Of a stretch of DNA of 64,000 nt, positions 8,459 through 43,060 are shown one piece after another (positions within the stretch are counted from its first letter, which is position 1; each line of letters begins with the position of its first letter). Below the pieces are notes generated by a model, which worked only from the letters and a program-made list of their open reading frames with translations, searched no databases and was not told where the DNA came from. This DNA comes from an uncultured Candidatus Saccharibacteria bacterium. GTDB taxonomy: Bacteria > Patescibacteriota > Minisyncoccia > Minisyncoccales > GWA2-38-27. The stretch covers positions 11,020-75,019 of the forward strand of contig CAYUSS010000002.1 in assembly GCA_964447515.1 (NCBI GenBank), read 5' to 3'. Position numbers and translations under genes: made by a program.

Positions 8459-8477
8459 ACAGGGGGCGACCCTCTGT
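8459..8477. repeat. REP-like hairpin ACAGGGGGCGACCCTCTGT (a partial copy lies at 8438-8453)
   Basis: 8-bp stem with a 3-nt loop, followed by duplicated CTCTGTAAATATTAA. Confidence 0.7.
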
Positions 8478-9305: not shown

Positions 9306-9324
9306 TACAGAGGGTCGCCCCCTG
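9306..9324. repeat. REP-like hairpin ACAGAGGGTCGCCCCCTGT (inverted relative to 8459-8477)
   Basis: Reverse complement of the left-flank hairpin, followed by duplicated CCCCCTGTAAATTTCG. Confidence 0.7.
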
Positions 9325-9384
9325 TAAATTTCGACCCCCTGTAAATTTCGAATTTTATACCAACAGACAGTAAAAAATGAATTC

Positions 9385-10140
9385 ATGAAGCCATTAATTA
9401 TCGCAAATTGGAAGATGAATCCGCAGACTTTGGCCAAAGCCAAGTGGCTTTTTAATTCTCTAAAAAGAGGATTAAAAAATAATAAAAAAGTAGAAGTAGT
9501 AATTTGCCCGCCGTTTGTATATTTGCTAAATCCAAAATCTCAAATCTCAAATGTCAAATTAGGTTCGCAAAATTGTTTTTGGGAAAAAGAAGGCGCTTAT
9601 ACAGGCGAGATTTCTCCAGACCAACTTTTAAATTTGGGTTGTCAATATGTTATTGTCGGGCATTCTGAAAGACGGAGATATTTTAAGGAAACAGACGAGA
9701 TAATAAATAAAAAATTAAAAGCAGTAATTAAAATTAAAATGAGTCCTATTTTATGTATAGGGGAGACCAGGGAACAGAGAAATAAAGGAGAAACAGAGAT
9801 GGTTTTAAAAAGGCAAATAGAGTTAGCCCTAAAAGGAGTTACAAGTTACAAGTTACAGGTTTCAGGATTTTGTATTGCTTACGAGCCGGTTTGGGCTATT
9901 GGAACCGGAAAACCTTGTGATGTTGAAGAAACTCAGAAAATGGGCTTACTCATCAGAAAGATTATTACCAAGCTCTACAATTCTCCAACCGCTAAAAGAA
10001 TTAGAATTCTTTATGGAGGCAGTATAAATAGTAAAAATGCTGCCGGTTATATAAAAGAGGCTCATCTTCAAGGACTTCTTGTCGGAGGAGCTTCTTTAAA
10101 CGCAAAAGAGCTTATTAGGATAGTCAGAGCAGTGAGTTGA
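9385..10140 (+). CDS. tpiA: triosephosphate isomerase
   Basis: Motifs IIANWKMN, VGHSERR, AYEPVWAIGTG, YGGS. It contains an in-frame GTTACAA word repeat at 9838-9859. Confidence 0.9.
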   Translation: MKPLIIANWKMNPQTLAKAKWLFNSLKRGLKNNKKVEVVICPPFVYLLNPKSQISNVKLGSQNCFWEKEGAYTGEISPDQLLNLGCQYVIVGHSERRRYFKETDEIINKKLKAVIKIKMSPILCIGETREQRNKGETEMVLKRQIELALKGVTSYKLQVSGFCIAYEPVWAIGTGKPCDVEETQKMGLLIRKIITKLYNSPTAKRIRILYGGSINSKNAAGYIKEAHLQGLLVGGASLNAKELIRIVRAVS

Positions 10141-10865: not shown

Positions 10866-12776
10866 ATGAAGGCAAAAGAATTGCGGAGAAAATATCTTCA
10901 ATTTTTCAAAGAAAAAGGGCACGCTATAATTCCTGGCGCTTCTTTGGTTCCAGAGCACGATCCGACTGTGCTTTTTACTACGGCTGGGATGCATCCCTTG
11001 GTGCCTTTTTTATTAGGGGAAAAACATCCAGCTGGCCAGAGATTAGTTAATTGTCAGAAATGTTTGCGTACCGGTGATATTGATAAAGTCGGCGATTCCT
11101 GGCATTTAACTTTTTTTGAAATGTTAGGGAATTGGTCAGTTGGTGATTATTGGAGAAAAGAGGCAATTGAATGGAGCATTGAATTTTTAACTAAGAAGAA
11201 ATGGTTGGGAATTCCAAAAGAAAAATTAAGCATAACAGTTTTTGCTGGCGATAAAGATGCTCCAAGAGACGAAGAATCAGCTCAAATTTGGCAAAAACTA
11301 GGTATTGCCAAAGAGAGAATTTATTTTTTACCAAAAAACGAGAATTGGTGGGGTCCAGCAGGTCAGACCGGCCCCTGTGGTCCCTGCACCGAGATGTTCT
11401 ATGATGTTGGCAAAGATAAATGTGGTTCCGATTGCCGGCCAGGTTGCGATTGTGGCAAATACGTTGAGATTTGGAATGATGTTTTTATGGAATACAATAA
11501 GAAAATCAAAATGACAAATCAAAATTCAAAAAGAAATAAACCCAAAAACCATAATGACGAAATAGAATATGAATATGTGCCATTAGTACAAAAAAATGTT
11601 GATACTGGAATGGGGGCTGAGAGAACAGTAGCCATATTGAATGGTCAGGACAATGTTTATGAAATGGAATTGTTTGCACCAATAATCAAAAAGATTGAAA
11701 CTTTAACAAATACAAGTTACAAGTTACCCGCCCGCCTTGCTTCGCAAGACGAAGCGGGTTCGCCTCGCTTTAGCTTCGGCGAAGCGGGCGAGCGAGTTAC
11801 AAGTTACAGGATAATCGCTGACCACTTAAAAGCAGCTACTTTTATCTTAGCCGAAAACATTGAGCCATCCAACGTTGAGCGAGGTTATGTGCTCCGCCGA
11901 CTAATTCGGCGAGCAGTTAGATATGGTCGGCAATTGGGTATTAAGGATGTATTTTCTCACAAAATTGCTGAAACAGTGATTGATATTTATAAAGAAATTT
12001 ATCCTCATCTTTGGCAAGGGAAAGATTTTATTTCTGGGCAGTTAATTAAAGAAGAAGAGAAGTTTGAAAAGACCCTGGCTAAAGGGTTGCGAGAATTGGA
12101 GAAATTAGTTAATAAAAAGTATCAGAGAGAAAAAGAATTTGGAGGAGAAGATGCCTTTTATATTTACGAAACTTTTGGCTTTCCTTTAGAAATGATTGAA
12201 GAAGAATTAGTCCATTATGGTTTAACAGTTAATTGCCAAGATTTTCAGGAAGCTTTCAAAAAACACCAAAAACTCTCTCGGGCTGGGGCTGAGCAAAAAT
12301 TCAAAAGCGGTTTAGCTGACCATTCTGTTCAGGTAATCAAGTATCATACCGCTACTCATTTATTACATCAGGCCTTAAGGGAAGTTTTGGGAACTTCTGT
12401 TAAACAAATGGGCTCTAATATTACTCCTCAACGACTTCGGTTTGATTTTTCTCATTCATCTAAAATGACCGAACAAGAACTTAAAAAAGTTGAAGGAATT
12501 GTTAATCAGAAAATTAAAGAAGATTTAGAAGTTAAAAAAGAAGAAATGTCTTACAAAGAGGCAATAAAATCAGGGGCTTTAGCTTTTGCTTTTAAACGGG
12601 CGGTGAGTGGGTGGCGTCCTGAAAGAGTAAATGTTTATTCTATTGGCGGTTTCTCAAAAGAAATTTGTGCCGGTCCTCATGTAAAAAGAACCTCTAAGCT
12701 TGGTAAATTTAAAATTATCAAAGAGAAATCATCCGGAGCAGGCATTAGAAGAATCCGCGCGATTTTAAAATCTTAA
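10866..12776 (+). CDS. alaS: alanine--tRNA ligase (short form without C-Ala domain)
   Basis: Class II core (FFKEKGH, FTTAGM, WGPAGQTGPCGPCTE), editing-domain HTATHLLHQAL and CAGPHV. A 99-bp in-frame repeat insertion lies at 11712-11810. Confidence 0.9.
   Translation: MKAKELRRKYLQFFKEKGHAIIPGASLVPEHDPTVLFTTAGMHPLVPFLLGEKHPAGQRLVNCQKCLRTGDIDKVGDSWHLTFFEMLGNWSVGDYWRKEAIEWSIEFLTKKKWLGIPKEKLSITVFAGDKDAPRDEESAQIWQKLGIAKERIYFLPKNENWWGPAGQTGPCGPCTEMFYDVGKDKCGSDCRPGCDCGKYVEIWNDVFMEYNKKIKMTNQNSKRNKPKNHNDEIEYEYVPLVQKNVDTGMGAERTVAILNGQDNVYEMELFAPIIKKIETLTNTSYKLPARLASQDEAGSPRFSFGEAGERVTSYRIIADHLKAATFILAENIEPSNVERGYVLRRLIRRAVRYGRQLGIKDVFSHKIAETVIDIYKEIYPHLWQGKDFISGQLIKEEEKFEKTLAKGLRELEKLVNKKYQREKEFGGEDAFYIYETFGFPLEMIEEELVHYGLTVNCQDFQEAFKKHQKLSRAGAEQKFKSGLADHSVQVIKYHTATHLLHQALREVLGTSVKQMGSNITPQRLRFDFSHSSKMTEQELKKVEGIVNQKIKEDLEVKKEEMSYKEAIKSGALAFAFKRAVSGWRPERVNVYSIGGFSKEICAGPHVKRTSKLGKFKIIKEKSSGAGIRRIRAILKS
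11712..11810. repeat. 99-bp composite repeat inserted in frame in alaS (GTTACAA words flanking G+C-rich palindromes)
   Basis: ACAAGTTACAAGTTAC occurs on both sides of ACCCGC...GCGGGT and TCGCCTCGC...GCGAGCGA palindromes. It encodes SYKLPARLASQDEAGSPRFSFGEAGERVTSY immediately before the conserved RIIADH motif. Confidence 0.8.
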
Positions 12777-12836: not shown

Positions 12837-14168
12837 GTGCTTAAAAATTTGCTAAAAAAAATGATGCGAGGTAAAATTATAGTACCCGCTCTTCCAAATG
12901 AAATGAGTTTGAGATTTTTGAAGCCAAAACAAAAAGATAAATTTTTTTTAGTTTTGGATATCGGCACTGAAGCGATAAAAGCCTTGATTTTTAAGAGAGA
13001 ACAATTAGCAAAGAAAGATAATAAAAAGATTATTGTTTTAGGCGCTTCTCAACAATATTTTGAAAAATCTGGAGTCTTTGACAGCAGGGATTTTGAAGAA
13101 GAGGTTCTTAAAAAAACAATTTCAAAAGCGATCAAGGAAACCCAAGAACAGGCCGGGATTAGAACTACTTTAACTTTATTAAGCTTGCCAGCTACTATTT
13201 TAAAAGGAAGGATTGTTTTTCAGTTTTTTGAACGAAAAAAGGCCAAGGAAGAAATTTCCGAAGTAGAGGAAAAAATTATTTATGACCAGGTTTTAAGAAA
13301 TGTTCAAAAAGAGATTTCTCAAAAATTTGCTGAAGAATTTGGTATTTTACCTCAAGATATTCAAGGGATTTCTCTAAAATTTCTGGGGAGGAAAATTGAT
13401 GGCTATGCAGTATCAACATTTCAAGGGTACAAAGGGAAAATTTTAGAGTTTAAAATTTTAAGTGCTTTTTTAGCAAAAAATTATTTAGAAAATATAAAGA
13501 AGATTATTGAAGATTTAGGATTAGGAATTTTAAACCCCGTTAGAGATTCTGGGAATAAGGCAAAAGACCAGAAGGAAGATATCTCTAACAGAGTAAAAAT
13601 AATATATCCTCCTGAAAATTTACCCTTCACCTTTTTTCCGGAAAAGGTGAAGGGCTTGCCAGTTATTCAAGGGATAAAAAAGGACGTCATTTTTCTTGAT
13701 GTTGGAGGAGAAGTTACCCAGATTTTTTTAGTAAAAGATGGCAATCTAGAACGAATTAATGAATTTGGAATGGGAGGAAAAATATTTTCTCAAAGTTTAT
13801 CCAATACTTTAGGGATAAATGAAGAAAGAGCCAGAGATTTAAAAGAAAGATATTCAAACAAACTTTTAAGTCCTGAAATTAGAGAAAGAATTAAAGAGAT
13901 TTTGGCAGGGGAGCAGAGAGATTGGTATGAAGGTTTAAAATCAGGAATCAAAGAAATGAAGATTGAAGGACTTTTTCCTTCAACTGTTTTCTTTTTTGGA
14001 GGAGGAAGTCAACTTCCGGAAATTCAAGATAGTTTGAGGAAAATGGGGAGTAAGATAAAGTTTATTTTCCCCAAAGATTTTAAAAATATTGAAGATAGAA
14101 CAGAAAGTTTAAAAACCCCTCAATATACTCCAACTTTATTGACAATTAATAATGAAGAAATTTTTTGA
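12837..14168 (+). CDS. actin-like ASKHA ATPase, FtsA/PilM-like
   Basis: Phosphate/adenosine motifs LVLDIGTEAIKALIF, FLDVGGEVTQIF, FFFGGGSQLPEI. GTG start is uncertain (ATG 12861 is an alternative). An in-frame palindrome lies at 13535-13593. Confidence 0.5.
   Translation: MLKNLLKKMMRGKIIVPALPNEMSLRFLKPKQKDKFFLVLDIGTEAIKALIFKREQLAKKDNKKIIVLGASQQYFEKSGVFDSRDFEEEVLKKTISKAIKETQEQAGIRTTLTLLSLPATILKGRIVFQFFERKKAKEEISEVEEKIIYDQVLRNVQKEISQKFAEEFGILPQDIQGISLKFLGRKIDGYAVSTFQGYKGKILEFKILSAFLAKNYLENIKKIIEDLGLGILNPVRDSGNKAKDQKEDISNRVKIIYPPENLPFTFFPEKVKGLPVIQGIKKDVIFLDVGGEVTQIFLVKDGNLERINEFGMGGKIFSQSLSNTLGINEERARDLKERYSNKLLSPEIRERIKEILAGEQRDWYEGLKSGIKEMKIEGLFPSTVFFFGGGSQLPEIQDSLRKMGSKIKFIFPKDFKNIEDRTESLKTPQYTPTLLTINNEEIF
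13535..13593. repeat. CCCCGTTAGAGAT...ATCTCTAAC palindromic element in frame in the FtsA-like ORF
   Basis: Same family as 49099-49157. Encodes NPVRDSGNKAKDQKEDISNRV. Confidence 0.75.
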
Positions 14169-15550: not shown

Positions 15551-15775
15551 ATGGGAAAATCTAATAAAAAAGTTTATCGGAAAAACGGCATTGTTTTAGA
15601 GTCCTTACCAAGTACTCATTTTCGAGTAAAGTTAGATGAAGGGAAAGAAATAATTGCTCATTTAGCCGGGAGATTAAGAATTTACCGAATTAAGATTTTG
15701 CCCGGTGATAAAGTGATAGTAGAAATGAACCCCTATGATGAGAATCGGGGAAGAATAGTGTATAGGGGAAAATAG
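15551..15775 (+). CDS. infA: translation initiation factor IF-1
   Basis: [63 protein letters not shown] is a clear IF-1 S1-fold sequence. Start moved from track 15455 to ATG 15551. Confidence 0.9.
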
Positions 15776-15861
15776 AAGCTGATAAACGCTGATGACAACG
15801 CCGATAAACGCTGAAAAATAATTGACGTAAATCAGCGTAGATATCGGCGTAAATCTGTTTC
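15775..15861. repeat. word-hairpin spacer element (GAAGC...GCTTC/GTTTC family), copy 1
   Basis: About 90 percent identical by eye to 17691-17776. Built from GATAAACGC / GCGTAAATC words. Ends 9 nt before the rpmJ ATG. Confidence 0.8.
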
Positions 15862-15869
15862 TACAAACT

Positions 15870-15983
15870 ATGAAGGTTCGGTCTTCGGTAAAAAAAATTT
15901 GCAAAAATTGTAAAATTGTCAGGCGCAAAGGAAGGGTCTATGTAATTTGTAAAAATCCCAGGCACAAACAGCGCCAAGGTTAG
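15870..15983 (+). CDS. rpmJ: 50S ribosomal protein L36
   Basis: Not in the ORF track (37 aa). [37 protein letters not shown] is the canonical L36 sequence. Confidence 0.92.
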
Positions 15984-15994
15984 AAGTCTCGAAA

Positions 15995-16084
15995 CTTGTA
16001 ACTTGTAACGCGTAACCCAAGATTTATTTATATAATAATTTACATTTTTTCTTGGGTTATAAGTTATAGGTTACAAGTTACAAG
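15995..16084. repeat. GTTACAA/TTGTAAC word hairpin between rpmJ and rpsM
   Basis: Left arm CTTGTAACTTGTAACGCGTAACCCAAG, right arm CTTGGGTTATAAGTTATAGGTTACAAGTTACAAG. Same family as 25338-25442. Confidence 0.8.
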
Positions 16085-16088
16085 AATT

Positions 16089-17056: not shown

Positions 17057-17686
17057 GTGAAAAATAATAAGTGTAAAATTTGTAGAAAGTTAGGACAGAA
17101 ACTTTTTCTTAAAGGCGATAAATGCTTATCGCCAAAGTGCCCAATGGTAATAAAACCATATCCGCCAGGAATGAAAAGCAAAAGAAGAAGAAGGACGGTT
17201 TCTGAATATGGAAAAGAATTAAGAGAAAAACAGAAATTAAAAGTCTGGTATAATTTAAAAGAAAAGCAATTTAGAAAATATATAAAAGAAATTCTTGAAA
17301 AACGAGGAAAGGTAGAGGACACAAGCGCCTTATTGTTGAAAAAATTAGAGAGTCGTTTAGATAATGTAGTTTTTAGAATGGGGTTTGTTTCTTCTCGCAG
17401 TCAAGCTCATCAAATTATCAGTCATAATCATTTTTTAGTTAATGGAAAGATGGTTAATATTTCCTCTTTTCAGACAAAAAAAGGTGATAAGATTAGCCTA
17501 AATCCCCGGTCTGGCAAAAAAGTTATTTTCCAAAATCTTCCTACAATTTTAAAAAAATATAAACCTCCTTCTTGGATTAAGATTAATATTGGAAAATTGG
17601 AAGGGGAAATCATTGAAACACCGTTTTTAGAAGAGGCAGCTTCCCCAGCTGAGCTTTCCACCATTTTTGAGTATTATTCCCGCTAA
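17057..17686 (+). CDS. rpsD: 30S ribosomal protein S4
   Basis: N-terminal CKICRKLGQKLFLKGDKC zinc-ribbon-type S4 and an S4 RNA-binding domain (LESRLDNVVFRMGF). GTG start. Confidence 0.9.
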   Translation: MKNNKCKICRKLGQKLFLKGDKCLSPKCPMVIKPYPPGMKSKRRRRTVSEYGKELREKQKLKVWYNLKEKQFRKYIKEILEKRGKVEDTSALLLKKLESRLDNVVFRMGFVSSRSQAHQIISHNHFLVNGKMVNISSFQTKKGDKISLNPRSGKKVIFQNLPTILKKYKPPSWIKINIGKLEGEIIETPFLEEAASPAELSTIFEYYSR

Positions 17687-17690
17687 GATA

Positions 17691-17776
17691 GAAGCTGATA
17701 AACGCCGATGACAACGCCGATAAACGCCGATATATTTTAGCGTAAATCAGCGTAGATATCGGCGTAAATCTGCTTC
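17691..17776. repeat. word-hairpin spacer element (GAAGC...GCTTC family), copy 2
   Basis: Near-copy of 15775-15861. Ends 9 nt before the rpoA ATG. Confidence 0.8.
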
Positions 17777-17784
17777 TACAGAAT

Positions 17785-18624
17785 ATGATACTTTTACCAC
17801 GACAAGCTAAAATTATTAGCAAAAAAGATAACTGGGCTCGTTTTGAAATTGAGTCCCTATATCCTGGTTATGGAGTAACTATTGGTAACGGTCTTAGAAG
17901 AGTTTTGCTTTCTTCTTTACCAGGAGCAGCTGTAACTCAAATGAAGATTAAAGGAGTTCAGCACGAATTTTCAACAATATTCGGAGTTTTAGAAGATGTA
18001 ATCAACATTATAATGAATTTAAAGCAAATGAGATTTAAAATATACACCGATGAACCCCAAAAAGCATTCCTGAAAATTAAAGGAGAAAAAGAAGTCAAGG
18101 GTTCTGATTTTGATTATCCCAGTCAGGTTGAATTAATAAATAAATCTTGTCATATCGCTACTTTAACTGATAAAAAAGCAGAGTTAGAGATGGAAATTCA
18201 GATTGAGAAAGGTATTGGATATGAGCCGATTGAACGGAGGAAAAAACAGGAAAAATTAGAAATTGGAGTTATACCCGTTGATGCCATTTTTACTCCGGTT
18301 AGAAGGGTAAGTTATAAAGTAGAAAATATGCGGGTAGGAGAGAGGACAGACTTTGATAGATTATATTTAGAAGTTGAGACCGACGGAACAGTTACTCCTA
18401 AAGAAGCCTTCTATCGGGCCTCGGAAATTTTAGTAAAACATTTTTCCTTGCTTAGAGAAAGCTTCAAGGTCCTGGAAGAAAAGAAGCTTCCTGAAGAGAG
18501 AGCTCCTAAAAAGAAACCCGCTCCTATTAAAGCTAAGGCTTCTATTAAAGATAGGGCCGCCAAAAAAGCTGGCGTAGTCAAAAAGAAAAAGAAAAAGCCC
18601 AAAAAGAAGAAATCAAATGCGTAA
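17785..18624 (+). CDS. rpoA: DNA-directed RNA polymerase subunit alpha (NTD plus Lys-rich tail; no recognisable CTD)
   Basis: Alpha NTD motifs (FEIESLYPGYGVTIGNGLRRVLLSSLPGAAV, DAIFTPVRRVSYKVE). After about residue 230 only a low-complexity KKKPAPIKAKA...KKKKKKPKKKK tail remains. Confidence 0.9.
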   Translation: MILLPRQAKIISKKDNWARFEIESLYPGYGVTIGNGLRRVLLSSLPGAAVTQMKIKGVQHEFSTIFGVLEDVINIIMNLKQMRFKIYTDEPQKAFLKIKGEKEVKGSDFDYPSQVELINKSCHIATLTDKKAELEMEIQIEKGIGYEPIERRKKQEKLEIGVIPVDAIFTPVRRVSYKVENMRVGERTDFDRLYLEVETDGTVTPKEAFYRASEILVKHFSLLRESFKVLEEKKLPEERAPKKKPAPIKAKASIKDRAAKKAGVVKKKKKKPKKKKSNA

Positions 18625-18967: not shown

Positions 18968-19061
18968 AAGCGGATCGCTTCGCTTCACGCGGATAGTTAC
19001 GCGGAAAAACGCGGAAGGCTATCTGCGTAAATCTGCGTTACTATCCGCGTTATTCTGCTTC
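18967..19061. repeat. word-hairpin spacer (GCGGAT/ATCCGC, TACGCG/CGCGTA words) upstream of rplM
   Basis: Starts GAAGCGGAT and ends CTGCTTC. The terminal clamp GAAGC/GCTTC and the distance to the ATG match the 15775 and 17691 elements. Confidence 0.75.
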
Positions 19062-19068
19062 TATAAAT

Positions 19069-19416
19069 ATGGAACGTAAAACCCATACCATTGATGCCAG
19101 CAATAAGGTTTTAGGAAGATTGGCGGTTCAAATTGCCATATTATTGCGTGGTAAACAGAAAGTAGATTTTGCCCTTAATAAAGATATGGGAGATTTTATT
19201 GTTGTTAAAAATATCAATAAAATCAAGTTAACAGGTAAAAAAAAGGAAAAGAAAATTTATTACCATCACACCGGCTATTTGGGGGGATTAAAAGGGATTT
19301 CTTTTGAAAAACTTTTTAAAAAAAATCCCGGAGAAGTTTTAAGAAAAGCAGTTTTTGGGATGCTGCCTAAAAATAAATTAAGAGCTAAACAGATAAAGCG
19401 TTTAAAAGTAGAGTGA
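19069..19416 (+). CDS. rplM: 50S ribosomal protein L13 (short, 115 aa)
   Basis: IDASNKVLGRLAVQIAILLRGK...YYHHTGYLGGLK...AVFGMLPKNKL is typical of L13. It ends at RLKVE, before the usual conserved C-terminal segment. Confidence 0.88.
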   Translation: MERKTHTIDASNKVLGRLAVQIAILLRGKQKVDFALNKDMGDFIVVKNINKIKLTGKKKEKKIYYHHTGYLGGLKGISFEKLFKKNPGEVLRKAVFGMLPKNKLRAKQIKRLKVE

Positions 19417-20814: not shown

Positions 20815-20854
20815 ACGAGACCCGACCTCGTCACGAGGTCGGGTCTCGTTTTTT
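20815..20854. terminator. perfect palindromic hairpin between convergent genes (bidirectional terminator candidate)
   Basis: ACGAGACCCGACCTCGT-C-ACGAGGTCGGGTCTCGT followed by T5. Confidence 0.75.
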
Positions 20855-22484
20855 AGGGAACTAATTTTTTTGAACTATATAAAGTTTCTTCAGATAAAAT
20901 ATATAATTTTTTATTAGTTTGATTCCAGAATATTTTAGGAGGTTTTCCTTTTTTAGAAGAGGGAAATTCAGCAAAATCAACAATATTTATTTTATCTCGG
21001 TTGTCGATTTCAATGATTTTTATTTTATCTCCAACATCAAATACTAAATAGTGATTTGTGTACCAAAAAATTTCATTAATTTTTTCTGAAAAACGAGTTA
21101 AGAATACTTTTTCTCCGGCCTCTCTTTGGGGCTGGTTATATATTTGTTCCAAAAACAAAATCCAGATTTCGTAATTATTGAAATAAACTAATTTTTTGGA
21201 ATCCGGTGAAAATCTTAAGTTTTTAACTGGTTCAAAAAGTTTTTCAAAAGTTTTTTGAGCCTTATTTAGAGAATATAAAATATTACTTTCTTTCAGAAAA
21301 ATGTGGGAATTTATTCCGAATATTTTGTATTCAGTTTCTTTCTTTGGAGGAAGGGGAGTTGTATTTAATTTTTCTTTAGGAGAAAAAGAGAAATCAGTTC
21401 TAAAAACAAAACCCGAGTTATCAAGACAATGAATATTGTTTTTAAGAACCGAGCAAGTAATTATATTTTCAAAATGAGGTGAAGAGATTTTTTTATCAAT
21501 TAACCCTGTTAAATTGCTCCGCTCCGACTTTGTCGGATTTAACAGGGTTAAATCTGCTTCGCTTAATTTTCCTGTTTTTAATATTAATAATTTTTGGGGA
21601 TTTTTTGGGTTAAAATAAACTTCCTGCACATCCGGACCTAAAAAATCAAGGGGAGTTAAAACTACCGGAACCTTATCTATTTCTAAAAGATAATATATCT
21701 TAACACCCGACGTTTCCCTTGGCGCCTCTGGCCCGCCTAAATTTTTCTCTGAAAAACTTGAGTTGGCTGGCGCCAATTCCTCAACGTCGGGTGTTGAAAT
21801 TATTCCAACTTCAAGTAATATTCTTTTTGAGTCAGGAGAAAATTTTAAATCAATTAGTTGAACTTGTTCCCCGCCTTCGCCAAGGCTACTGCGGGCAGGA
21901 AGGGAAATATCTTTTTCTTCAATTAAAAGACTTTTAACATTTTTTTCTAAATCAAAAAGTTTTAAAGCCCATCCTTCGCCAAGGCTTCGGTTGGCAAGCA
22001 AGCTTGAGCTTTCAGGGTTTTGAGGATTTTCAGGGTTCGTATTTGTTTCCTCCTTTAAAATTATTTTTTTATTATCAGGAGAAAAATAAAAACTTTCTAT
22101 TCCTTTGGATATAATTGTAAAATTAGGGTTTTCTGAAATTAAAATAATATTTTTTGCTTCGGTGACCTCTCTTTCTTTTATTTCCAAAGTTTTTTTCCAG
22201 CTATGGAACCCTTGTTTTCTAATTTCTATACTATATTTTTTAGGCGAAAGGTTTTCAATTAGAGCTGAGCCAAAGAAAAAGTCAGTTTTCTTTTCAAACT
22301 CTTCATTAAGGTAGATTTGGCTATTTTTGGGCCAAATTTTAAAATAAAAAACTCCCGGTTGGATAATTTTTTTTGTTTCCCAATCAAAATGCCAACCCAG
22401 ATAATATAAAATAGTTACCGGGGCAACTATTAAGAACAAAATTGCCAGAAATAAAAATAAAATAGTCCGAACTTTTTTAGTCAT
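20853..22484 (-). CDS. membrane-anchored PEGA-domain / beta-propeller-like protein
   Basis: N-terminal TM, a PEGA-like segment (SQIYLNEEFEKKTDF...YSIEIRKQGFHSW), and repeated FSPD(S/N)KK motifs. It carries three in-frame repeat insertions. Confidence 0.55.
   Translation of the reverse strand: MTKKVRTILFLFLAILFLIVAPVTILYYLGWHFDWETKKIIQPGVFYFKIWPKNSQIYLNEEFEKKTDFFFGSALIENLSPKKYSIEIRKQGFHSWKKTLEIKEREVTEAKNIILISENPNFTIISKGIESFYFSPDNKKIILKEETNTNPENPQNPESSSLLANRSLGEGWALKLFDLEKNVKSLLIEEKDISLPARSSLGEGGEQVQLIDLKFSPDSKRILLEVGIISTPDVEELAPANSSFSEKNLGGPEAPRETSGVKIYYLLEIDKVPVVLTPLDFLGPDVQEVYFNPKNPQKLLILKTGKLSEADLTLLNPTKSERSNLTGLIDKKISSPHFENIITCSVLKNNIHCLDNSGFVFRTDFSFSPKEKLNTTPLPPKKETEYKIFGINSHIFLKESNILYSLNKAQKTFEKLFEPVKNLRFSPDSKKLVYFNNYEIWILFLEQIYNQPQREAGEKVFLTRFSEKINEIFWYTNHYLVFDVGDKIKIIEIDNRDKINIVDFAEFPSSKKGKPPKIFWNQTNKKLYILSEETLYSSKKLVP
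21702..21795. repeat. long (nested) form of the ACACCCGACGTT palindromic element, in frame in the PEGA ORF
   Basis: Encodes TPDVEELAPANSSFSEKNLGGPEAPRETSGVK on the minus strand. Same family as 23211-23266, 31689-31781 and 54782-54840. Confidence 0.8.
21869..21899. repeat. G+C-rich palindrome CCCCGCCTTCGCCAAGGCTACTGCGGGCAGG in frame in the PEGA ORF
   Basis: Near-copy, in inverted orientation, of the miaB insert core at 46261-46290. A related copy lies at 21968-22003. Confidence 0.75.
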
Positions 22485-22630: not shown

Positions 22631-22758
22631 AGACCGTTGAATAATTCAGCGTTGTTCAGCGTAGATATCGGCGTTATTCAGCGTTAGCATAGTTTTATCG
22701 CTGAACCACGCTGGACTATACGCTGAAATTACGCTGAAAAATAATTATTCAACACTCT
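22631..22758. repeat. 128-bp CAGCG-word hairpin element, copy L (immediately upstream of murA)
   Basis: Its reverse complement matches 28109-28236 with 5 mismatches in 128 (hand alignment). Terminal arms are GTTGAATAATT / AATTATTCAAC. Confidence 0.85.
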
Positions 22759-22765
22759 AAAAATT

Positions 22766-24091
22766 ATGACCGAAAAATTTGTGATCCAAGGAGGAAAAAC
22801 TTTAAAAGGAACCATTGAGGCCAGAGGGGCAAAAAATGCCGCTCTTCCGATATTAGCCGCCACCCTCTTGACTAAAGAACCTTGTATTATTGGCAACCTT
22901 CCTTTAATTGAGGATGTTTTCAAAATGCTGAAGATTTTAGAAGGGTTGGGAGCTGAAATTTCTTGGCTGGGGAAAAGAAAAATTAGAATAAAATGTTCAA
23001 ATATTAATCCTTCAAAACTTCCCTGGGATATTGTTGGTTGTCTTAGAGGTTCGGTTTTAATTTTAGGGCCGCTTTTAGCCCAATTTGCCAAAATAAAAAT
23101 TCCTTCGCCGGGTGGTTGTTTAATTGGTGCCAGACCCTTAGACAGCCATTTAGATGCTTTTTCTCAGGCAGGTATTAAAGTTTCATCAAAAGATAAATTT
23201 TATTACTTTACAACACCCGACGTTGAGGAATTGGCGCCAGAGGCGCCAAGGGAAACGTCGGGTGTTAAGGAATTAAAATTTAAGCCTATAGAAATTATTC
23301 TTAGGGAATTTAGTGTTACTGCAACCGAAAATATTCTTTTGTTTTCTGTTCTTAGGGCCAAGAAAACTATTTTGAAAATTGCTGACCAAGATTATCAGGT
23401 TCAAGAATTAACCAAAGTTCTTAAAAAAATGGGAGCAAAAATTAAACCGAGTGGGGTCCATATCCTGAATATTATTGGTCAAAAAAAATTAAAAGGATTT
23501 AATCATTATTTAATGTCAGACCCCATAGAAGCAGGAACTTTTATTGTAGCAGCATTAGCAACCCAGGGAGAAGTCTTGATTAAAAACGCTGAGTTTTCTT
23601 TTCTTGAACTTTTTTTAAAGCATCTTCGGGATTTTGGGGCGAAAATTGAAATTTTAGGCCCAAAAACAATCAAGGTTTTTCCTTCAAGGAAACTTAAAAT
23701 GGATAAAGTCCAAAGTTCACCTTATCCCGGCATTCACACCGATTTACTGCCGGAACTTGGAGTTTTAGCTACTCAAACCGAAGGTCTTACCTTAATTCAC
23801 GACCCCTTATATGAAAGTCGGCTTAAATACCTTGAAGAATTAAATAAAATGGGGGCTGATATAATTTTTTGCGACCCTCACCGGGCAATAATTAACGGCC
23901 CCACCTTGCTTAAGGGGATTGAAATTCCCAGTTCTGATATTCGAGCCGGAGCTGCCCTGATTATTGCCGGATTAATAGCTAAAGGAAAAACAATAATTGG
24001 TAATATTTATCAAATTGATAGGGGATACGAACGTATTGAGGAGCGCTTTCAGAAATTGGGGGCAGATATTAAAAGAATATCAGAGAAATAG
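22766..24091 (+). CDS. murA: UDP-N-acetylglucosamine 1-carboxyvinyltransferase
   Basis: FVIQGGKTLKGTIEARGAKNAALPILAA..., active-site-loop Cys context (PGGCLIGARPLD), C-terminal YQIDRGYERIEERFQKLGA. An in-frame 56-bp palindrome lies at 23211-23266. Confidence 0.93.
   Translation: MTEKFVIQGGKTLKGTIEARGAKNAALPILAATLLTKEPCIIGNLPLIEDVFKMLKILEGLGAEISWLGKRKIRIKCSNINPSKLPWDIVGCLRGSVLILGPLLAQFAKIKIPSPGGCLIGARPLDSHLDAFSQAGIKVSSKDKFYYFTTPDVEELAPEAPRETSGVKELKFKPIEIILREFSVTATENILLFSVLRAKKTILKIADQDYQVQELTKVLKKMGAKIKPSGVHILNIIGQKKLKGFNHYLMSDPIEAGTFIVAALATQGEVLIKNAEFSFLELFLKHLRDFGAKIEILGPKTIKVFPSRKLKMDKVQSSPYPGIHTDLLPELGVLATQTEGLTLIHDPLYESRLKYLEELNKMGADIIFCDPHRAIINGPTLLKGIEIPSSDIRAGAALIIAGLIAKGKTIIGNIYQIDRGYERIEERFQKLGADIKRISEK
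23211..23266. repeat. short form of the ACACCCGACGTT...AACGTCGGGTGT nested palindrome, in frame in murA
   Basis: CAACACCCGACGTTGAGGAATTGGCGCCAGAGGCGCCAAGGGAAACGTCGGGTGTT. Encodes TPDVEELAPEAPRETSGV. Confidence 0.85.
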
Positions 24092-25328: not shown

Positions 25329-25337
25329 AATCTCGAA

Positions 25338-25442
25338 ACCTGTAACCTGTAACTTATAACCTGTAACCTGTAACCCTCTTGAGTTATAAGTTACAAGTTA
25401 TAAGTTACAAGATTTGGGTTACGAATTACAAGTTGCAAGTTA
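25338..25442. repeat. GTTACAA/TTGTAAC-type word hairpin upstream of holB
   Basis: Left arm ACCTGTAACCTGTAACTTATAACCTGTAACCTGTAACCC, right arm GAGTTATAAGTTACAAGTTATAAGTTACAAG... It shares the leader TCTCGAAAC with 15986-16084. Confidence 0.8.
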
Positions 25443-25443
25443 T

Positions 25444-26340
25444 ATGATATTGGGTCATCAAAAACAATGGAACTTATTAAAGCGTCTGGCTGAAGCAGAT
25501 AAAATTCCTCAGGCTTTTTTATTTTTTGGTGAAGAAAAATTAGGAAAAAAAACTTTAGCTATTGAATTTGTTAAATATTTAAATTGCCAGAATGATAAAA
25601 AGCCATGCCAGACCTGTCGTTCCTGCCAAGATATTGAAAGGGGGATTTATCCCGATTTTTCTTTAATCTCGTTCCTAAAAAAGGGAATTCAAATATCTCA
25701 AATAAGAGACCTTATTTGGAAATTATCCCTCCGTTCCTATTCAGCTCCCTTTAAAGCGGCAGTTATAGATAAAGCTCATTTGATGACCAGAGCAGCTCAA
25801 AGTTGTTTTTTAAAAACCCTGGAAGAACCAAAAGGCAAAACTCTTTTGATTTTGGTAACTGAATATCCGGAGATGTTATTGCCGACAATTCTCTCAAGAG
25901 TTCAGCGATTGAAGTTTTTTCCAGTAAAACATTTGGAAATTGAAAATTATTTGAAAACAAAAGGTGCCACTCCTGGCCAGGCGAGCGAACTATCTTCGCT
26001 TTCTCTGGGAAGGCCGGGGTTAGCACTGGATTTTTTCTCAGATTTGAAAAAAGTCAGCGATTTTAAACAAAAAACTAAGGAAATTGAAAAACTTAGTGTT
26101 TCTGATTTGGCTTTTCGTTTCCAATATGCTAAAAATTTATCTTCACAAAGTCCTCAAACCATCAAAGAAGTTTTGTATATCTGGCTTCAGTATTTTAGAA
26201 AAATACTGCTTAGCGAAGAGAAAAATTCTTTGCCCAAAATTAAAAAAATCCTTAAACTTATTCAAAGCACAAATTTTTTGGTTTCAACCACTAATGTCAA
26301 TTCGAAATTAGCCCTTGAGATTTTATTAATGGAATTATAA
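25444..26340 (+). CDS. holB: DNA polymerase III subunit delta-prime
   Basis: AAA+ clamp-loader pattern: HQKQW...IPQAFLFFGEEKLGKKTLA, Zn module CQTCRSC, SRVQRLKF. Start moved to ATG 25444, outside the repeat. Confidence 0.75.
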   Translation: MILGHQKQWNLLKRLAEADKIPQAFLFFGEEKLGKKTLAIEFVKYLNCQNDKKPCQTCRSCQDIERGIYPDFSLISFLKKGIQISQIRDLIWKLSLRSYSAPFKAAVIDKAHLMTRAAQSCFLKTLEEPKGKTLLILVTEYPEMLLPTILSRVQRLKFFPVKHLEIENYLKTKGATPGQASELSSLSLGRPGLALDFFSDLKKVSDFKQKTKEIEKLSVSDLAFRFQYAKNLSSQSPQTIKEVLYIWLQYFRKILLSEEKNSLPKIKKILKLIQSTNFLVSTTNVNSKLALEILLMEL

Positions 26341-28097: not shown

Positions 28098-28108
28098 TTC
28101 AAATTATT

Positions 28109-28236
28109 AGGGTGTTGAATAATTATTTTTCAGCGTAATTTCAGCGTATAGTTCAGCGTGGTTCAGCGATAAAACTATGCTAATGCTGAACAACGCCGAT
28201 ATCTACGCTGAACAACGCGGAATTATTCAACGGTCT
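28109..28236. repeat. 128-bp CAGCG-word hairpin element, copy R (inverted; immediately upstream of mreB paralog 2)
   Basis: Reverse complement of 22631-22758 with 5 mismatches. Confidence 0.85.
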
Positions 28237-29657: not shown

Positions 29658-31073
29658 ATGAGTCTTCACCAATTAAGTATTGTTCAAGCTCATGATGGAC
29701 TTTTAAAGAAAAAGTTCTCTGCTTTGGAGCTAGCTAAGGCCTTTTTGGACAGAATAAAAACTGAGGATAAAAAGATTTCCGCTTTTTTAACAGTGACTGA
29801 AGATTTAGCCCTTTCTCAAGCGAAAAGAGTTGATGATTTAATTTCTGTTGGTGAAGATATTCCTTTATTGGCTGGAATTCCTTTAGCTGTTAAAGATAAT
29901 ATTTTGATTGAAGGGATTAAGACAACTTGTGCTTCAAAAATCCTTGAAGATTATATTGCGCCCTATGATGCCACTTGTATAGAAAAACTTAAGAAACTTG
30001 GGGCAGTGATTTTAGGGAAGACAAATTTAGATGAATTTGCCATGGGCGCTTCAACTGAAAATTCAGCATTTTTCCCGACAAAAAATCCTCATGATTTAAA
30101 TCGGGTACCTGGCGGTTCTTCAGGGGGCTCTGCAGCTGCCGTAGCTGATGATTTATGCTGCTATGCCCTGGGTTCTGATACAGGCGGTTCAATTAGGCAA
30201 CCTGCTTCTTTCTGTGGGGTAAAGGGTTTGAAACCCAGCTATGGAGCAGTTTCCCGTTACGGTTTAACTGCTTTTGCTTCTTCTTTGGATCAGATAGGGA
30301 CTATAACAAAAACAACCGAGGATGCTAAAATTGTTTTTGAGGCAATTGCCGGCAAGGACCCAAAAGATTCAACCAGTGTAGCAATAAATAAAAAGTTACA
30401 AGTTACAAGTTACAAATTACAAGATTTAAAGATCGGCGTTCCCAAGGAATATTTCGTAGAGGGAATAGATAAAGAGGTCGAAAAAGTGATTAAAGATGCC
30501 ATTAAGAAATTTGAAAATTTTGGAGCAAAAATAGAAGAAATTAGTTTACCTCATACAAAATATGCTGTACCTATTTATTATCTTATTGCTACTTCTGAGG
30601 CATCAGCTAATTTAGCCAGATATGATGGAATAAAATACGGACTCTCAAAAAACCAGGGACAAAATTTATTAGACGTTTATTTACGGAGTAGAGTAGAGGG
30701 TTTTGGAGATGAGGTTAAAAGAAGAATTATGCTGGGGACCTACGCTCTTTCGGCTGGTTATTACGAAGCTTATTATTTAAAAGCCCAGAAAGTTAGAACA
30801 TTAATTAAAGAAGATTTTGATAGGGCCTTTCAAAAAGTTGATGTTATTTTTTCTCCAACTGCTCCAACTCCTGCCTTTAAAATCGGAGAAAAAATTATTG
30901 ACCCTCTCTCAATGTATTTATGCGATATCTTTACTGCTCCGGTAAGTCTGGTTGGGTTACCGGCTGTTTCAATCCCGGTCGGTTTTGTTGGAAAGTTACC
31001 GGTTGGTTTGCAGATTATTGGAAAACCATTTGAGGAAAATAAAATTTTAAAAATTGGTCAATTAACTGAATAA
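29658..31073 (+). CDS. gatA: Asp/Glu-tRNA amidotransferase subunit A
   Basis: Amidase signature [12 protein letters not shown]...[12 protein letters not shown]. An in-frame GTTACAA word repeat lies at 30395-30423. Confidence 0.93.
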
Positions 31074-31082
31074 GTAGGTAAA

Positions 31083-31592
31083 ATGGAAAAGATATTTTAT
31101 TTTATTATACATCCTGAGTTTAGGGGATTTCTTTTATATCTCAGAATTATTTTTATAGTTATTTCTTCATTTTTTTTGCTAAGCATTATTATTCTTCTTC
31201 TGAGAAGCAGCTGGATGAAGGATCGTTATTTAGAGGCATTAACAGAGTTTGTCACTTATCGACCCTTTGGAGTAAAAGAAACCTTTAAACAGTGGAATAA
31301 GATTGTTAAAAGATTAGAGACCGACAGAGAAGCCGAATATAAATTAGCAGTAATTGAGGCAGATGGTTTATTAGAAAGCGTTTTGGAAAGAATGGGATAT
31401 AAAGGAGATAATTTTGTCCAAAGGTTGGAGCAAATAGACCCGTCTGTTTTACCTAATCTGGAGGAGGTTTGGAAGGCCCATAAAACCCGCAATAATATTG
31501 TCCACGACCCTGATTATCGATTAATTTTGGCTCAGGCAAAAACAATGTTAGAAATTTATGAAAAAGCTCTCCGAGACCTTGAGATGTTTTAA
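31083..31592 (+). CDS. hypothetical membrane protein
   Basis: 169-aa ORF with an N-terminal TM (LLYLRIIFIVISSFFLLSIIILLL). No family recognised. Confidence 0.5.
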   Translation: MEKIFYFIIHPEFRGFLLYLRIIFIVISSFFLLSIIILLLRSSWMKDRYLEALTEFVTYRPFGVKETFKQWNKIVKRLETDREAEYKLAVIEADGLLESVLERMGYKGDNFVQRLEQIDPSVLPNLEEVWKAHKTRNNIVHDPDYRLILAQAKTMLEIYEKALRDLEMF

Positions 31593-31638
31593 TATAAATA
31601 AAACCGTTCCATCTTAATCTAAAACCCGACATTAATCT

Positions 31639-31675
31639 AAAACCCGACGTTGAGGATTTTTAAACGTCGGGTTTT
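31639..31675 (+). terminator. hairpin AAAACCCGACGTT...AACGTCGGGTTTT (mini-copy of the CCCGACGTT element) acting as a likely terminator
   Basis: 13-bp arms followed by a T run, downstream of the 31083..31592 ORF. Confidence 0.55.
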
Positions 31676-31688
31676 GTATTTGTGGTTG

Positions 31689-31781
31689 AAACCCGACGTT
31701 GAGGAATTGGCGCCAGCCCGCCCAAGTTTTTCAGAAAAAAATTTAGGCGGGCCAGAGGCACCAAGGGAAACGTCGGGTTTT
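31689..31781. repeat. long (nested) form of the CCCGACGTT palindromic element, intergenic
   Basis: AAACCCGACGTTGAGGAATTGGCGCC-[GCCCGCC...GGCGGGC insert]-AGAGGCACCAAGGGAAACGTCGGGTTT. Confidence 0.8.
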
Positions 31782-34124: not shown

Positions 34125-34143
34125 ACAGAGGGTCGCCCTCTGT
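34125..34143. repeat. REP-like hairpin ACAGAGGGTCGCCCTCTGT between pheS and pheT
   Basis: Perfect palindrome of the family that flanks the RAYT-like gene at 8520..9302. Confidence 0.75.
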
Positions 34144-42749: not shown

Positions 42750-42778
42750 CATTTTTCATTATTTGATAAAATTAATAT

Positions 42779-43060
42779 AAGAACCTGACTTCGTCAGAAC
42801 CTTGATTCGCTAAGGTATAGAAAACATATTGCGGCTTCGTCGCATAATTGCTTCACTCGGTTGAAGAAGAAAAATAAATTTTTCTTTTTCTCCCTCGTTT
42901 GCAATTATAATCTTGAATTAAGAACCTGACTTCGTCAGAACCTTGATTCGCTAAGGTATAGAAAACATATTGCGGCTTCGTCGCATAATTGCTTCACTCG
43001 GTTGAAGAAGAAAAATAAATTTTTCTTTTTCTCCCTCGTTTGCAATTATAATCTTGAATT
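42779..43060 (+). repeat. perfect tandem duplication, 2 x 141 bp, ending at the gatB start codon
   Basis: 42779-42919 and 42920-43060 read identically base for base. Each unit is the nusG-upstream module plus a ~75-bp internal palindromic insert. Confidence 0.9.

Follow-up and report, generated by a model that had tools for sequence, protein, structure and literature searches.

Rickettsia is the genus best known for palindromic repeats that lie in frame within essential genes, and such repeats have mostly been regarded as a peculiarity of that genus; we found no literature report of such repeats in the Candidate Phyla Radiation (CPR). Mobile GC-rich palindromes also occur in the AT-rich mitochondrial genes of other organisms, as the GC clusters of yeast and the byp elements of Magnusiomyces; byp elements break the reading frame and are bypassed by the ribosome. 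The Rickettsia palindromic elements RPE-1 to RPE-10 are summarized in PMC10969869 as sequences of ~100–150 bp (Ogata et al. 2000 Science 290:347). REPs are shorter, imperfect palindromes of 20–40 nt with GTAG or CGTC at one end, and many of the intragenic REPs lie in replication and repair genes (PMC3733652). Among MITEs, ERIC, BOX, and Anabaena MITEs fuse in frame with host ORFs (PMC10969869). We describe here a family of nested hairpin repeats from an uncultured Patescibacteria bacterium, which we consider probably to be a selfish, RPE-like family that has spread within the genome and been filtered by selection.

The 64-kb stretch of DNA analysed here (the window) contains the repeat in three size classes that have their outer arms in common: a mini form of ~37 nt, a short form of 55 nt, and a long form of 94 nt. 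The short form is a two-tier palindrome that occupies 57 nt (19 codons) as inserted, and the long form is a three-tier palindrome that occupies 96 nt (32 codons). The terminal inverted repeats are perfect arms of 13–15 nt, (TC)AACACCCGACGTT / AACGTCGGGTGTT(GA). Pattern searches of the window recovered all the copies that a previous sequence-only reading of this DNA had listed, namely two short, two long, the mini form, and a fragment. One short copy lies in murA on the plus strand (palindrome 23212–23266, 23213–23269 as inserted; minimum free energy (MFE) −37.1 kcal/mol, z −8.2). The other (54784–54838, plus strand; −34.8 kcal/mol, z −7.7) is intergenic, flanked by the divergent genes dnaE (start codon 54728, minus strand) and rpmF (54890, plus strand), and carries three transitions that leave G-U pairs. 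One long copy is in frame in a 543-aa ORF (21699–21794, minus strand; −49.8 kcal/mol, z −8.1). Its inner module (21728–21766, minus strand; 39 nt, 13 codons, ANSSFSEKNLGGP) is bounded by CCAG...CCAG, and its left inner arm is degraded, with CCAACTC in place of CCCGCCC, a point on which the sequence-only reading needs correction. The intergenic long copy (31689–31781, plus strand, with AAACCC...GGGTTTT ends; −50.1 kcal/mol, z −6.8) lies 3' of the ORF at 31083–31592 and 43 nt 5' of tRNA-Met (31824), and the 39-nt inner module within it (31717–31755, plus strand) is an intact palindrome, GCCCGCC...GGCGGGC. The mini form (31639–31675, plus strand; −20.2 kcal/mol, z −5.6) consists of the outer arms alone around a GAGGATTTTTA loop, with an A-tract and a T-tract on its two sides in a terminator-like arrangement. 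Arm pattern matches on the plus strand further identified a lone left-arm fragment, ACCCGACATT, at 31624–31633 and a fragment with two partial left arms, AACACCCGACCTTGAACACCCGAA, at 60603–60628 between def and pcm.

The predicted RNA folds are stable, with ~−37 kcal/mol for the short form and ~−50 kcal/mol for the long form. The z-scores from 200 shuffles range from −6.8 to −8.2 for the full copies in the window, and from −5.6 to −8.2 when the mini form is included. A 29-nt half-element pattern matched the window four times and none of 100 shuffles, and the 10-mer arm was found 12 times compared with an expectation of 1.08. Chance origin of the repeat family is excluded. An Rfam scan of the window returned only tRNAs and no match to the element.

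The host gene murA (22766–24091, plus strand) encodes a UDP-N-acetylglucosamine 1-carboxyvinyltransferase of 441 aa (E = 2.7e-87 to 2yvw), and its closest relatives are MurA proteins of Candidatus Nealsonbacteria, which place the host in the Patescibacteria. The insert encodes the peptide TPDVEELAPEAPRETSGVK, residues 150–168. It is opposed by a gap in the alignments to MurA proteins in the PDB, and the basal 420-aa form of MurA has a short turn at the insertion point. None of 120 MurA orthologues carries the peptide, whose presence in distant lineages would, by the sequence-only reading, have spoken against an insertion; the segment is inserted rather than ancestral. The same reading had raised the possibility of a pseudogene. 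However, murA is not a pseudogene: the ORF is intact, the four motifs GAKNAA, GGC-LIGARP, HTD, and DIRAGAA are present, and the AlphaFold2 model is confident (mean pLDDT 88.6, pTM 0.89). In this model, the insert is a low-confidence loop (pLDDT 49–58) between the strands at 145–149 and 175–178 of an otherwise confident fold.

The murA segment might also be explained by faulty assembly, or by a hypervariable loop of ancestral origin that mimics an insertion, since this loop is hypervariable in the clade and many of the 120 orthologues have unrelated extras of ~5–30 aa at the same place. Against both stand the identical murA sequence, with its copy of the element, in all four metagenome assemblies, which were assembled independently, and the recurrence of the 55–94 nt sequence at 93–100% identity in unrelated genes and intergenic DNA. 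We regard this explanation as effectively refuted. No empty/filled polymorphism at murA was found among the four assemblies. In a relative (L026), this loop of MurA is occupied by another palindrome (−38 kcal/mol). The equally long MurA inserts of the two closest relatives (L023 and L024) were considered as decayed copies of the element and rejected, as they have no DNA similarity to it (z −0.7 and −2.9).

The second coding copy in the window lies in the 543-aa ORF (20853–22484, minus strand) and encodes TPDVEELAPANSSFSEKNLGGPEAPRETSGVK, residues 231–262; both this peptide and that in murA are those given by the sequence-only reading. That reading had labelled the ORF "PEGA", a label that is unsupported because a Pfam scan of the ORF translation gave no match at E ≤ 0.01. 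The ORF has three syntenic orthologues of 480–493 aa, one of which, in L026, has an empty site, and here too the segment is an insertion and not an ancestral feature. The ORF contains three further in-frame inserts, one of which belongs to a repeat family also present in def.

Beyond the window, metagenome contigs of the same project contain seven more full-length copies, one more mini form, and one composite variant, and one diverged copy (L022) was found in another metagenome. In all, about a dozen copies were found, in collections that cover part of the source genome. Four of the additional copies are coding: one in the DNA ligase LigA, two in a UvrD-type helicase-nuclease, and one in an ORF of no assigned function. 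The LigA copy is located between the HhH and BRCT domains, and the long helicase copy between the UvrD_C and PD-(D/E)XK domains. The host proteins of the coding copies are functionally unrelated. In all six coding copies, the element has one orientation and one frame and reads TPDVEEL...RETSG; the agreement in orientation and frame that had been proposed for the two copies in the window thus extends to the four on related metagenome contigs. The short form has five open frames out of six, and the long form three. By our own arithmetic, the probability that all six copies agree by chance is ~1.5e-3. The diverged copy L022 is read in the other orientation, in a further frame that is likewise benign.

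The coding copies add 57 or 96 nt, exact multiples of three, and all six are free of stop codons in the host frame. These findings bear on whether the inserts are translated. The element, a GC-rich stable hairpin in AT-rich coding sequence, superficially resembles inserts that are removed from the mRNA or hopped by the ribosome, as in T4 gene 60 with its gap and in the byp elements of mitochondria. The preserved frame and the absence of stop codons in six of six copies would be needless if the insert were skipped, and the murA copy has no matching take-off and landing codons in its flanks. Translational bypass and RNA excision were rejected on the evidence of frame and length, and we consider an untranslated insert extremely unlikely. 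The likeness to GC clusters and byp elements, which lies in GC-rich hairpins across the AT-rich coding sequence of essential genes, therefore ends where byp elements break the frame: every coding copy here keeps it, and simple read-through would be the most economical account, with the inserts presumably translated.

The peptide might itself be the object of selection, as a linker, recognition tag, or protease site shared by several proteins, with the DNA palindrome secondary. The identical frame in six of six coding copies and the hydrophilic, proline-rich, linker-like character of the peptide are consistent with such a module. Six full-length or mini copies, however, are intergenic, and they have the same sequence in either orientation to their neighbouring genes. 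Synonymous and non-synonymous changes are mixed between the coding copies with no constraint visible by eye, the hosts are functionally unrelated, and their orthologues manage without the insert. We consider a selected peptide module highly unlikely.

Wider collections were searched as well. A scan of species representatives with a 19-nt core gave eight matches, seven in unrelated high-GC taxa and one, with a single arm, in a Daviesbacteria ORF; the element is absent from these representatives because, by our estimate, eight matches are at the level of chance. A scan of viral contigs gave no matches. A peptide census with all open frames joined as one query returned nothing, and as it also missed the 543-aa ORF, itself a representative in the database, its empty result carries no information. 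HMMER with the 35-aa peptide against 1.84 billion cluster representatives matched a single protein of 1872 aa (conjugation-type as judged by eye), at a low-complexity Pro/Thr repeat, and this match was rejected as spurious; this cluster library may represent host proteins by orthologues that have no insert, and neither peptide census speaks to the distribution of the element. The MurA search lacked a self-match because the 90% cluster of MurA is represented by a 136-aa fragment.

The ends of the element vary with its position. Five copies (31639, 31689, L017, L018, and L019) are A/T-ended (AAAACCC...GGGTTTT), and all of them are directly 3' of a gene or between convergent genes. Of the seven C/G-ended copies (AACACCC...GGGTGTT), six are the coding ones and the seventh lies in the promoter region of a divergent gene pair. 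The A/T-ended copies have the architecture of a terminator, a GC-rich stem-loop followed by a U-tract 3' of a stop codon, whereas the C/G-ended copies, with GGGTGTT, do not, and the A/T-ended copies may terminate transcription. In addition, both stems are kept across the aligned copies: 93% of cells are paired, compared with 37–46% when the 3' partner is slid. Changes on both sides of a pair were found in five pairs, and the covariation score was equalled by one of 500 shuffles; three of these pairs owe their two-sided change to the diverged copy L022 and one to the difference between the A/T and C/G subfamilies, and the rest is due to a flanking column.

These observations raise the alternative that the repeats are functional signals, that is, useful bidirectional terminators, mRNA-stabilising stem-loops, or pause sites, with the coding copies acting as regulatory mRNA hairpins. 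The location of five of five A/T-ended copies, the outer stem with its A-tract and T-tract, and the two-sided changes that keep the stems in L022 all point in this direction, as does another terminator-like hairpin at 20815–20849 that has the same ACCCGAC core. On the other hand, the coding copies lack the U-tract, and several of them carry changes that break stems (the long copy L013, L014a/b, and, within the 543-aa ORF, the inner arm). In one case the element sits in a promoter region between divergent genes. A simple terminator scan called no copy, a result that arises because the loops of the element exceed the 3–8 nt that this consensus scan accepts. We judge a functional signal to be a somewhat unlikely explanation of the family, and prefer that of a selfish repeat.

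The preferred reading would proceed as follows. A short non-coding hairpin repeat family increases in number inside the genome of its uncultured Patescibacteria host; new copies would land in many kinds of site, and selection would keep only the harmless ones. The intragenic copies that survive lengthen the gene by complete codons, 19 or 32 of them, and have the one orientation and frame that yields a hydrophilic, acidic, proline-rich, and probably disordered peptide; they are located in loops or inter-domain linkers. A/T-ended copies would survive at the 3' ends of genes, a position in which a stable hairpin with U residues behind it can serve as a terminator. In the intragenic copies, the U-tract is broken by the symmetric C/G variant of the ends.

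The nested architecture led the sequence-only reading to propose an element within an element. The nested tiers are real, and in all six long copies the 39-nt inner module lies inside the outer element with identical junctions. That the tiers are two independent mobile units, an element within an element, is unproven, because the 39-nt module has no free copy in the window and the nine element-bearing loci; the 19-nt mid-tier palindrome likewise has none in the sequence examined. Nested transposition would mean that a mobile 39-nt palindrome entered the apical loop of the short element, after the mid-tier palindrome had entered the loop of a mini-hairpin. Such a history accords with the strict nesting of the tiers and with the CCAG direct repeat that bounds the 39-nt module as a possible target duplication. 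The sole hint of modularity is the free-standing hairpin GCCCACCAAATTTTGCTCTGCAAAATTTGGTGGGC (5308–5342), which lies inside a different outer stem and, in our own alignment, is ~80% similar to the inner module when the latter is reverse-complemented. The identical junctions in six of six long copies imply that the long form spread as one unit, and the same sequences would result if the two CCAG microhomologies recombined and the hairpin tip were deleted, so that tip loss from a three-tier hairpin accounts equally well for the short form. We consider nested transposition somewhat unlikely. Given its extra TTTTT, the mini form is neither a plain deletion product nor a plain precursor.

With regard to mobility, Pfam scans of ~50 ORFs in the window revealed no transposase with ends matching the element. 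The only transposase-like gene is a RAYT-like Y1 (HUH) transposase ORF at 8520–9302 (Y1_Tnp, PF01797, E = 3.4e-12; NF047646, 41.7 bits, below the cutoff of 80), and tblastn detected no further RAYT in the other loci examined. The enzyme that moves the element may be of this kind, a link that is speculative because the ORF is flanked by a different, inverted REP-like palindrome, ACAGAGGGTCGCCCCCTGT, and not by the murA element. No direct repeats were found in the flanks of 12 copies; the flanks only extend the palindrome (xCA...TGx/TAA). We infer that the spread was transposition-like rather than by gene conversion. The genes def and pcm in the window also carry inserts, and several candidate intragenic hairpins are present elsewhere in the window; together they suggest that the habit of insertion is common in this genome.

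A broader reading is that hairpin repeats are the main source of lineage-specific loops and linkers in Patescibacteria proteins. Many unrelated palindrome families would hit the same permissive sites, the MurA loop being hit by different families in different lineages, and the inserts, once translated, would gradually become less palindromic and richer in A and T. A symmetric switch of one base pair at the ends (A-T or C-G) would decide between a life as a terminator and an intragenic one, and the RAYT-like Y1 transposases that are widespread in the phylum would mobilise hairpins as single strands, also into the loops of other hairpins to give nested forms. Taken as a whole, we think this reading unlikely. 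That a relative has a different palindrome at this site of MurA points to a general route from selfish hairpins to new loops and linkers. For annotators of CPR genomes, the family offers a tangible explanation of puzzling "insertions" within conserved enzymes, and the association of the end variants with either terminator or coding sites is directly testable.

Compared with the described systems, the element has in common with REPs and REPINs that both are short imperfect single-strand hairpins, single or composite (PMC3733652); REPs have no target duplication, and none is visible in the flanks of the element. The likeness to REPs extends to hosts that include LigA and a UvrD-type helicase, and to the presence in the window of a RAYT-like gene with inverted REP-like palindromes. 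Unlike REPs, it has no terminal GTAG or CGTC tag, GACG/CGTC being located inside the outer stem, and it is 55–94 nt long with two or three tiers rather than 20–40 nt; unlike in a REP/RAYT pair, the RAYT-like gene is not bordered by the element itself. Like MITEs, including the terminator-like SPRITE, it is small, ends in inverted repeats, occurs both within and between genes, and in some copies resembles a rho-independent terminator, but no target-site duplication was detected in its flanks and no parent IS with the same ends in the window, and it lies at the small extreme of MITE sizes.

The closest likeness is to the RPEs as these are summarized in PMC10969869. Both are dispersed palindromes found between genes and inside unrelated housekeeping genes, both have in-frame coding copies with a conserved peptide, intact host ORFs, and sites predicted to be fold-compatible, and both have no known transposase and inhabit a small, AT-rich, host-dependent type of genome. 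Compared by description with the RPEs, the present family has a stable dispersed palindrome, coding copies in one frame with a conserved peptide, and insertion at sites compatible with the host fold. The RPE analogy drawn in the sequence-only reading holds for behaviour, since the four further coding copies, in unrelated genes, have the same orientation and frame. The differences from that summary are that the host belongs to the Patescibacteria/CPR and not to the Alphaproteobacteria, and that the inserts are 57 or 96 nt instead of ~100–150 bp; further, the element comes in three nested size classes with one set of arms, and its end variants track terminator or coding position. The lineage described here is a second, very distant one with a reduced genome that shows RPE-like behaviour.

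A palindromic repeat recurs in the window in three sizes on common outer arms, and all of the copies listed in the sequence-only reading were found again. Short copies of 55 nt lie inside murA (23212–23266, plus strand) and in the intergenic region of the divergent dnaE–rpmF pair (54784–54838, plus strand). Long copies of 94 nt lie inside a 543-aa ORF (21699–21794, minus orientation) and at 31689–31781 (plus strand), a mini hairpin consisting of just the outer arms occupies 31639–31675, and arm fragments occur at 31624 and 60603–60628. The layout of the short form is AACACCCGACGTT-GAGGAA-TTGGCGCC-AGA-GGCGCCAA-GGGA-AACGTCGGGTGTT, and the long form equals the short form plus 39 nt between GCGCCAG and AGGCGCC. 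A 29-nt half-element pattern hit four sites in the window and none in shuffled sequences, and the 10-nt arm occurs at 12 sites (1.08 expected). As single strands, the short and long copies fold into two-tier or three-tier hairpins (-35 to -50 kcal/mol, z -6.8 to -8.2), and the mini form reaches -20 kcal/mol (z -5.6). It is well supported that a real family of in-frame palindromic repeats, similar to the Rickettsia palindromic elements (RPEs), is present in a Patescibacteria genome.

The murA gene (22766–24091, 441 aa) is intact and not disrupted: its product aligns over the full length to solved MurA structures (E 2.7e-87) and retains the motifs GAKNAA, GGC-LIGARP, HTD, and DIRAGAA. The element contributes 57 nt, encoding residues 150–168 (TPDVEELAPEAPRETSGVK). 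The best 120 MurA relatives, which share at most 77% identity with the window protein, are from Patescibacteria, and several bear the name Candidatus Nealsonbacteria. None of the 120 carries the element peptide, which identifies it as an insertion; the commonest form, of 420 aa, has FYYFEGKLKPQEVIL where the window protein has FYYFT[19 aa]ELKFKPIEIIL. Independent assemblies of four JGI metagenomes yielded the identical murA sequence, which rules out an assembly artefact. In an AlphaFold2 model built on a 76-sequence alignment (mean pLDDT 88.6, pTM 0.89), residues 151–170 form a coil between strands 145–149 and 175–178 with pLDDT averaging 49–58. The model fits an enlarged hairpin turn at the surface, where the insert had been expected to lie.

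This loop is an insertion hot spot throughout the clade. In L026, a relative with syntenic orthologues of murA and the 543-aa ORF, MurA (2932–4239) carries another strongly palindromic insert in the same loop (GACCCCCCACCACTTTTC...GAAAGTGGTGGGGGGT, -38 kcal/mol), encoding ERPPTTFQEKGFGKG; a similar peptide, KPPTTFQEKVMGGK, was found in the helicase (293–2764) of the metagenome locus L013. The two closest MurA relatives have loop inserts of equal length that are AT-rich and non-palindromic and show no similarity to the present element. Separately, the stretches directly upstream of murA and an mreB paralogue form a 135-nt inverted repeat (22631–22765 and 28102–28236, 96% complementary) composed of GCGTAAATCAGCGTAGATATCGGCG-type motifs. 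These motifs recur upstream of other genes (15769–15886, 17685–17801, and 18987–19086) and are possible promoter or operator modules common to them.

In the 543-aa ORF (20853–22484, minus strand), the long form supplies 96 nt, encoding residues 231–262. This ORF had been labelled PEGA, an assignment that we could not confirm because the protein has no Pfam match. The gene order PD-(D/E)XK protein, unknown ORF, murA, and mreB is kept in three relatives, whose orthologues of the ORF are 480–493 aa long. Alignment with these orthologues revealed four extra segments in the window protein: LLANRSLGEG, LPARSSLGEG, the long element, and LNPTKSERSNLTGLID. The L026 orthologue has a clean empty site at the position of the element, which establishes an insertion here as well. 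The other three in-frame inserts lie at 21972–22001, 21873–21902, and 21495–21542 (minus strand); the two of 10 aa are related and share AGCCTTGGCGAAGG, and the third, of 16 aa, comes from another palindrome family. Between this ORF and the convergent PD-(D/E)XK gene is a perfect 16-bp hairpin with a T-tract (20815–20849), the stem of which has an ACCCGAC core in common with the element arms. Small GTTCAACGTCGGGCGTTGAAC hairpins of this kind adjoin the element copies in the metagenome loci L017, L018, and L019.

A metagenome search with a two-arm pattern accepting any centre retrieved ten stretches, most of them from the same sequencing project, and a mismatch-tolerant search recovered one extra long copy. 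The copy numbers are lower bounds, because the collection covers only part of the source organism's contigs and missed the window's own murA contig. An NAD-dependent DNA ligase has a long copy in its HhH–BRCT linker, and an unknown ORF of 766 aa has one close to its N-terminus. A third protein, in which a UvrD-type helicase is joined to a PD-(D/E)XK nuclease, contains both a short copy and a long copy, the latter between the two domains. The same orientation and frame had been claimed for the two coding copies of the window, and this holds for the four further ones: all six follow the orientation of the gene and read TPDVEEL...RETSG. Five of the six frames of the short form and three of the six of the long form are stop-free, giving a chance of such agreement of about 3 x (1/5)^2 x (1/3)^4 = 1.5e-3, assuming that all stop-free frames are equally acceptable. 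The frame in use encodes an acidic, hydrophilic, and proline-rich peptide, and three of the unused frames encode strongly basic or hydrophobic ones. One reverse-orientation frame, TPDVSLGASGANSSTSGV, also seems harmless, and it is the frame read in a diverged short copy from another organism and a different metagenome (L022, 500–546 of contig Ga0180009_10106822), placed in opposite orientation in the N-terminal region of a GrpE-like ORF (PDVSLDACGVNSSTSG). Since this frame is used there, the bias seems to come from selection on the peptide rather than from the insertion mechanism, which also fits the occurrence of intergenic copies in either orientation relative to the neighbouring genes. The inserts are presumably translated.

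The ends of the copies differ with their location. Copies ending in AAAACCCGACG...CGTCGGGTTTT (31639, 31689, L017, L018, and L019) are found directly downstream of a stop codon or between two convergent genes, and those ending in AACACCCGACG...CGTCGGGTGTT comprise the six coding copies and the copy at 54784. The two types differ in the outer stem, where A-T is exchanged symmetrically for C-G, with loss of the U-tract required by a terminator. If the copies are taken as independent, the exact probability of the split, 5-to-0 versus 0-to-7, is 1 in 792; it is an association and not a test, because the copies are subfamilies. The A/T-ended copies presumably serve as terminators or are tolerated in that role, and selection would be expected to act against a U-tract that follows a -37 kcal/mol hairpin inside a gene.

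When 11 full copies were aligned with the 39-nt module cut out of the long ones, 93% of the cells were paired, as against 37–46% with the 3' partner slid by 1–3 columns. Five pairs are altered on both sides, and just one of 500 shuffles attained the covariation score. Three of them come from L022, in which both stems have pairs changed on both sides (TTGACGCC/GGCGTCAA and GATGTT/AACATC); of the remaining two, one reflects the two end types (A/T or C/G) and the other falls in a flanking column. Unpaired changes in coding copies, for example in the long helicase copy (left outer arm) and in the 543-aa ORF (inner arm), fit the decay expected after insertion. All six long copies have identical junctions (GCGCCAG|CCCGCC...GGGCCAG|AGGCGCC), which shows that this form was propagated as one unit. 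The element within an element that had been described stands insofar as a 39-nt palindrome is nested in the long form. That this palindrome entered as a separate mobile unit is rather doubtful, given these shared junctions and the fact that no free copy of the 39-nt module or of the 19-nt middle palindrome was found in the window and nine element-bearing loci. The CCAG repeat at the junctions could equally well be a 4-bp target duplication or the trace of a deletion that removed the hairpin tip through microhomology, and the sole observation favouring a modular build is a hairpin of about 80% similarity within a different outer stem (5308–5342). In the same region, a 404-aa ORF without a Pfam match (4037–5251) lies in a stretch of 47% GC (about 36% elsewhere) and is followed by a nested hairpin (5291–5360), the core of which resembles the inner module.

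The element is presumably mobile, and the flanks of 12 copies showed no target duplication. Pfam scans of about 50 ORFs in the window detected one transposase-like gene, encoding a RAYT-like Y1 (HUH) transposase (8520–9302, plus strand; PF01797, IS200-type Y1 family, E 3.4e-12). Its only NCBIfam match, "REP-associated tyrosine transposase", scored 41.7 bits, below the cutoff of 80. Homologues of the protein are abundant in Patescibacteria (2464 matches, to some of which JGI gives the name RayT). The gene is flanked by another palindrome, ACAGAGGGTCGCCCCCTGT, in inverted copies (8459–8477 and 9307–9325), a further copy lies in frame within it (8728–8746; ..EEIPRGSPPVTVVK..), and one more is located between pheS and pheT (34125–34143). 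The gene shows that the genome holds machinery that acts on single-stranded hairpins; nothing links it to the studied element.

A 70-nt sliding fold of the window detected many further strong hairpins inside ORFs, including alaS, gyrB, the DNA polymerase III delta' gene, rpsP, def, and pcm. Apart from def and pcm, hairpins of -24 kcal/mol or lower per 70 nt (11726–11795, 13533–13597, 13606–13675, 25961–26030, 37676–37745, 49095–49159, and 56716–56785) are hosted by alaS, an FtsA-like ORF, the delta' gene, gyrB, and an unknown 562-aa ORF, and the rpsP hairpin of this set lies in a C-terminal extension. The hairpins at 13533–13597 and 49095–49159 are a repeat pair with 77% complementarity, each within an ORF. 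In def, encoding peptide deformylase (59962–60519), an in-frame insert of 17 aa, HPVKSAEGGAKQFNGVK (60025–60075), is formed by a palindrome that pairs with 21500–21551 in the 543-aa ORF (52 nt, 83% complementary) and is read in the same orientation but in different frames in the two hosts. In pcm (60631–61344), an insert of about 30 aa, DYNPPTTSEVPAEGRRVEGGLESHSPKGERAS (about 60913–61010), divides the PCMT Pfam match into two pieces and coincides with a -33 kcal/mol hairpin (60911–60980).

Other repeats were also observed. A 141-nt tandem duplication (42766–43047, 96% identical) includes a 65-nt palindromic repeat, ATAATTGC...GCAATTAT, which occurs near tRNA genes and downstream of def (42844–42908, 42985–43049, 58582–58646, and 60493–60557). 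Intergenic DNA immediately upstream of genes also contains arrays of GTTACAAG-type octamers, often as inverted pairs (9832–9870, 15984–16088, 25333–25450, and 30389–30427).

We found no description of such elements in the Candidate Phyla Radiation in the literature. REPs have been reported inside genes, notably those for replication and repair, and REP families are defined by a terminal GTAG or CGTC tag (PMC3733652), which the present element lacks. RPEs are dispersed palindromes that have no known transposase and occur in frame in unrelated genes, at sites compatible with the protein fold, where they encode a conserved peptide (PMC10969869). The element behaves in the same way in all of these respects, bearing out the likeness to RPEs proposed in the sequence-only reading; it stands outside the RPE families, however, by its host and by its length, which is 57 or 96 nt as compared with about 100–150 bp.
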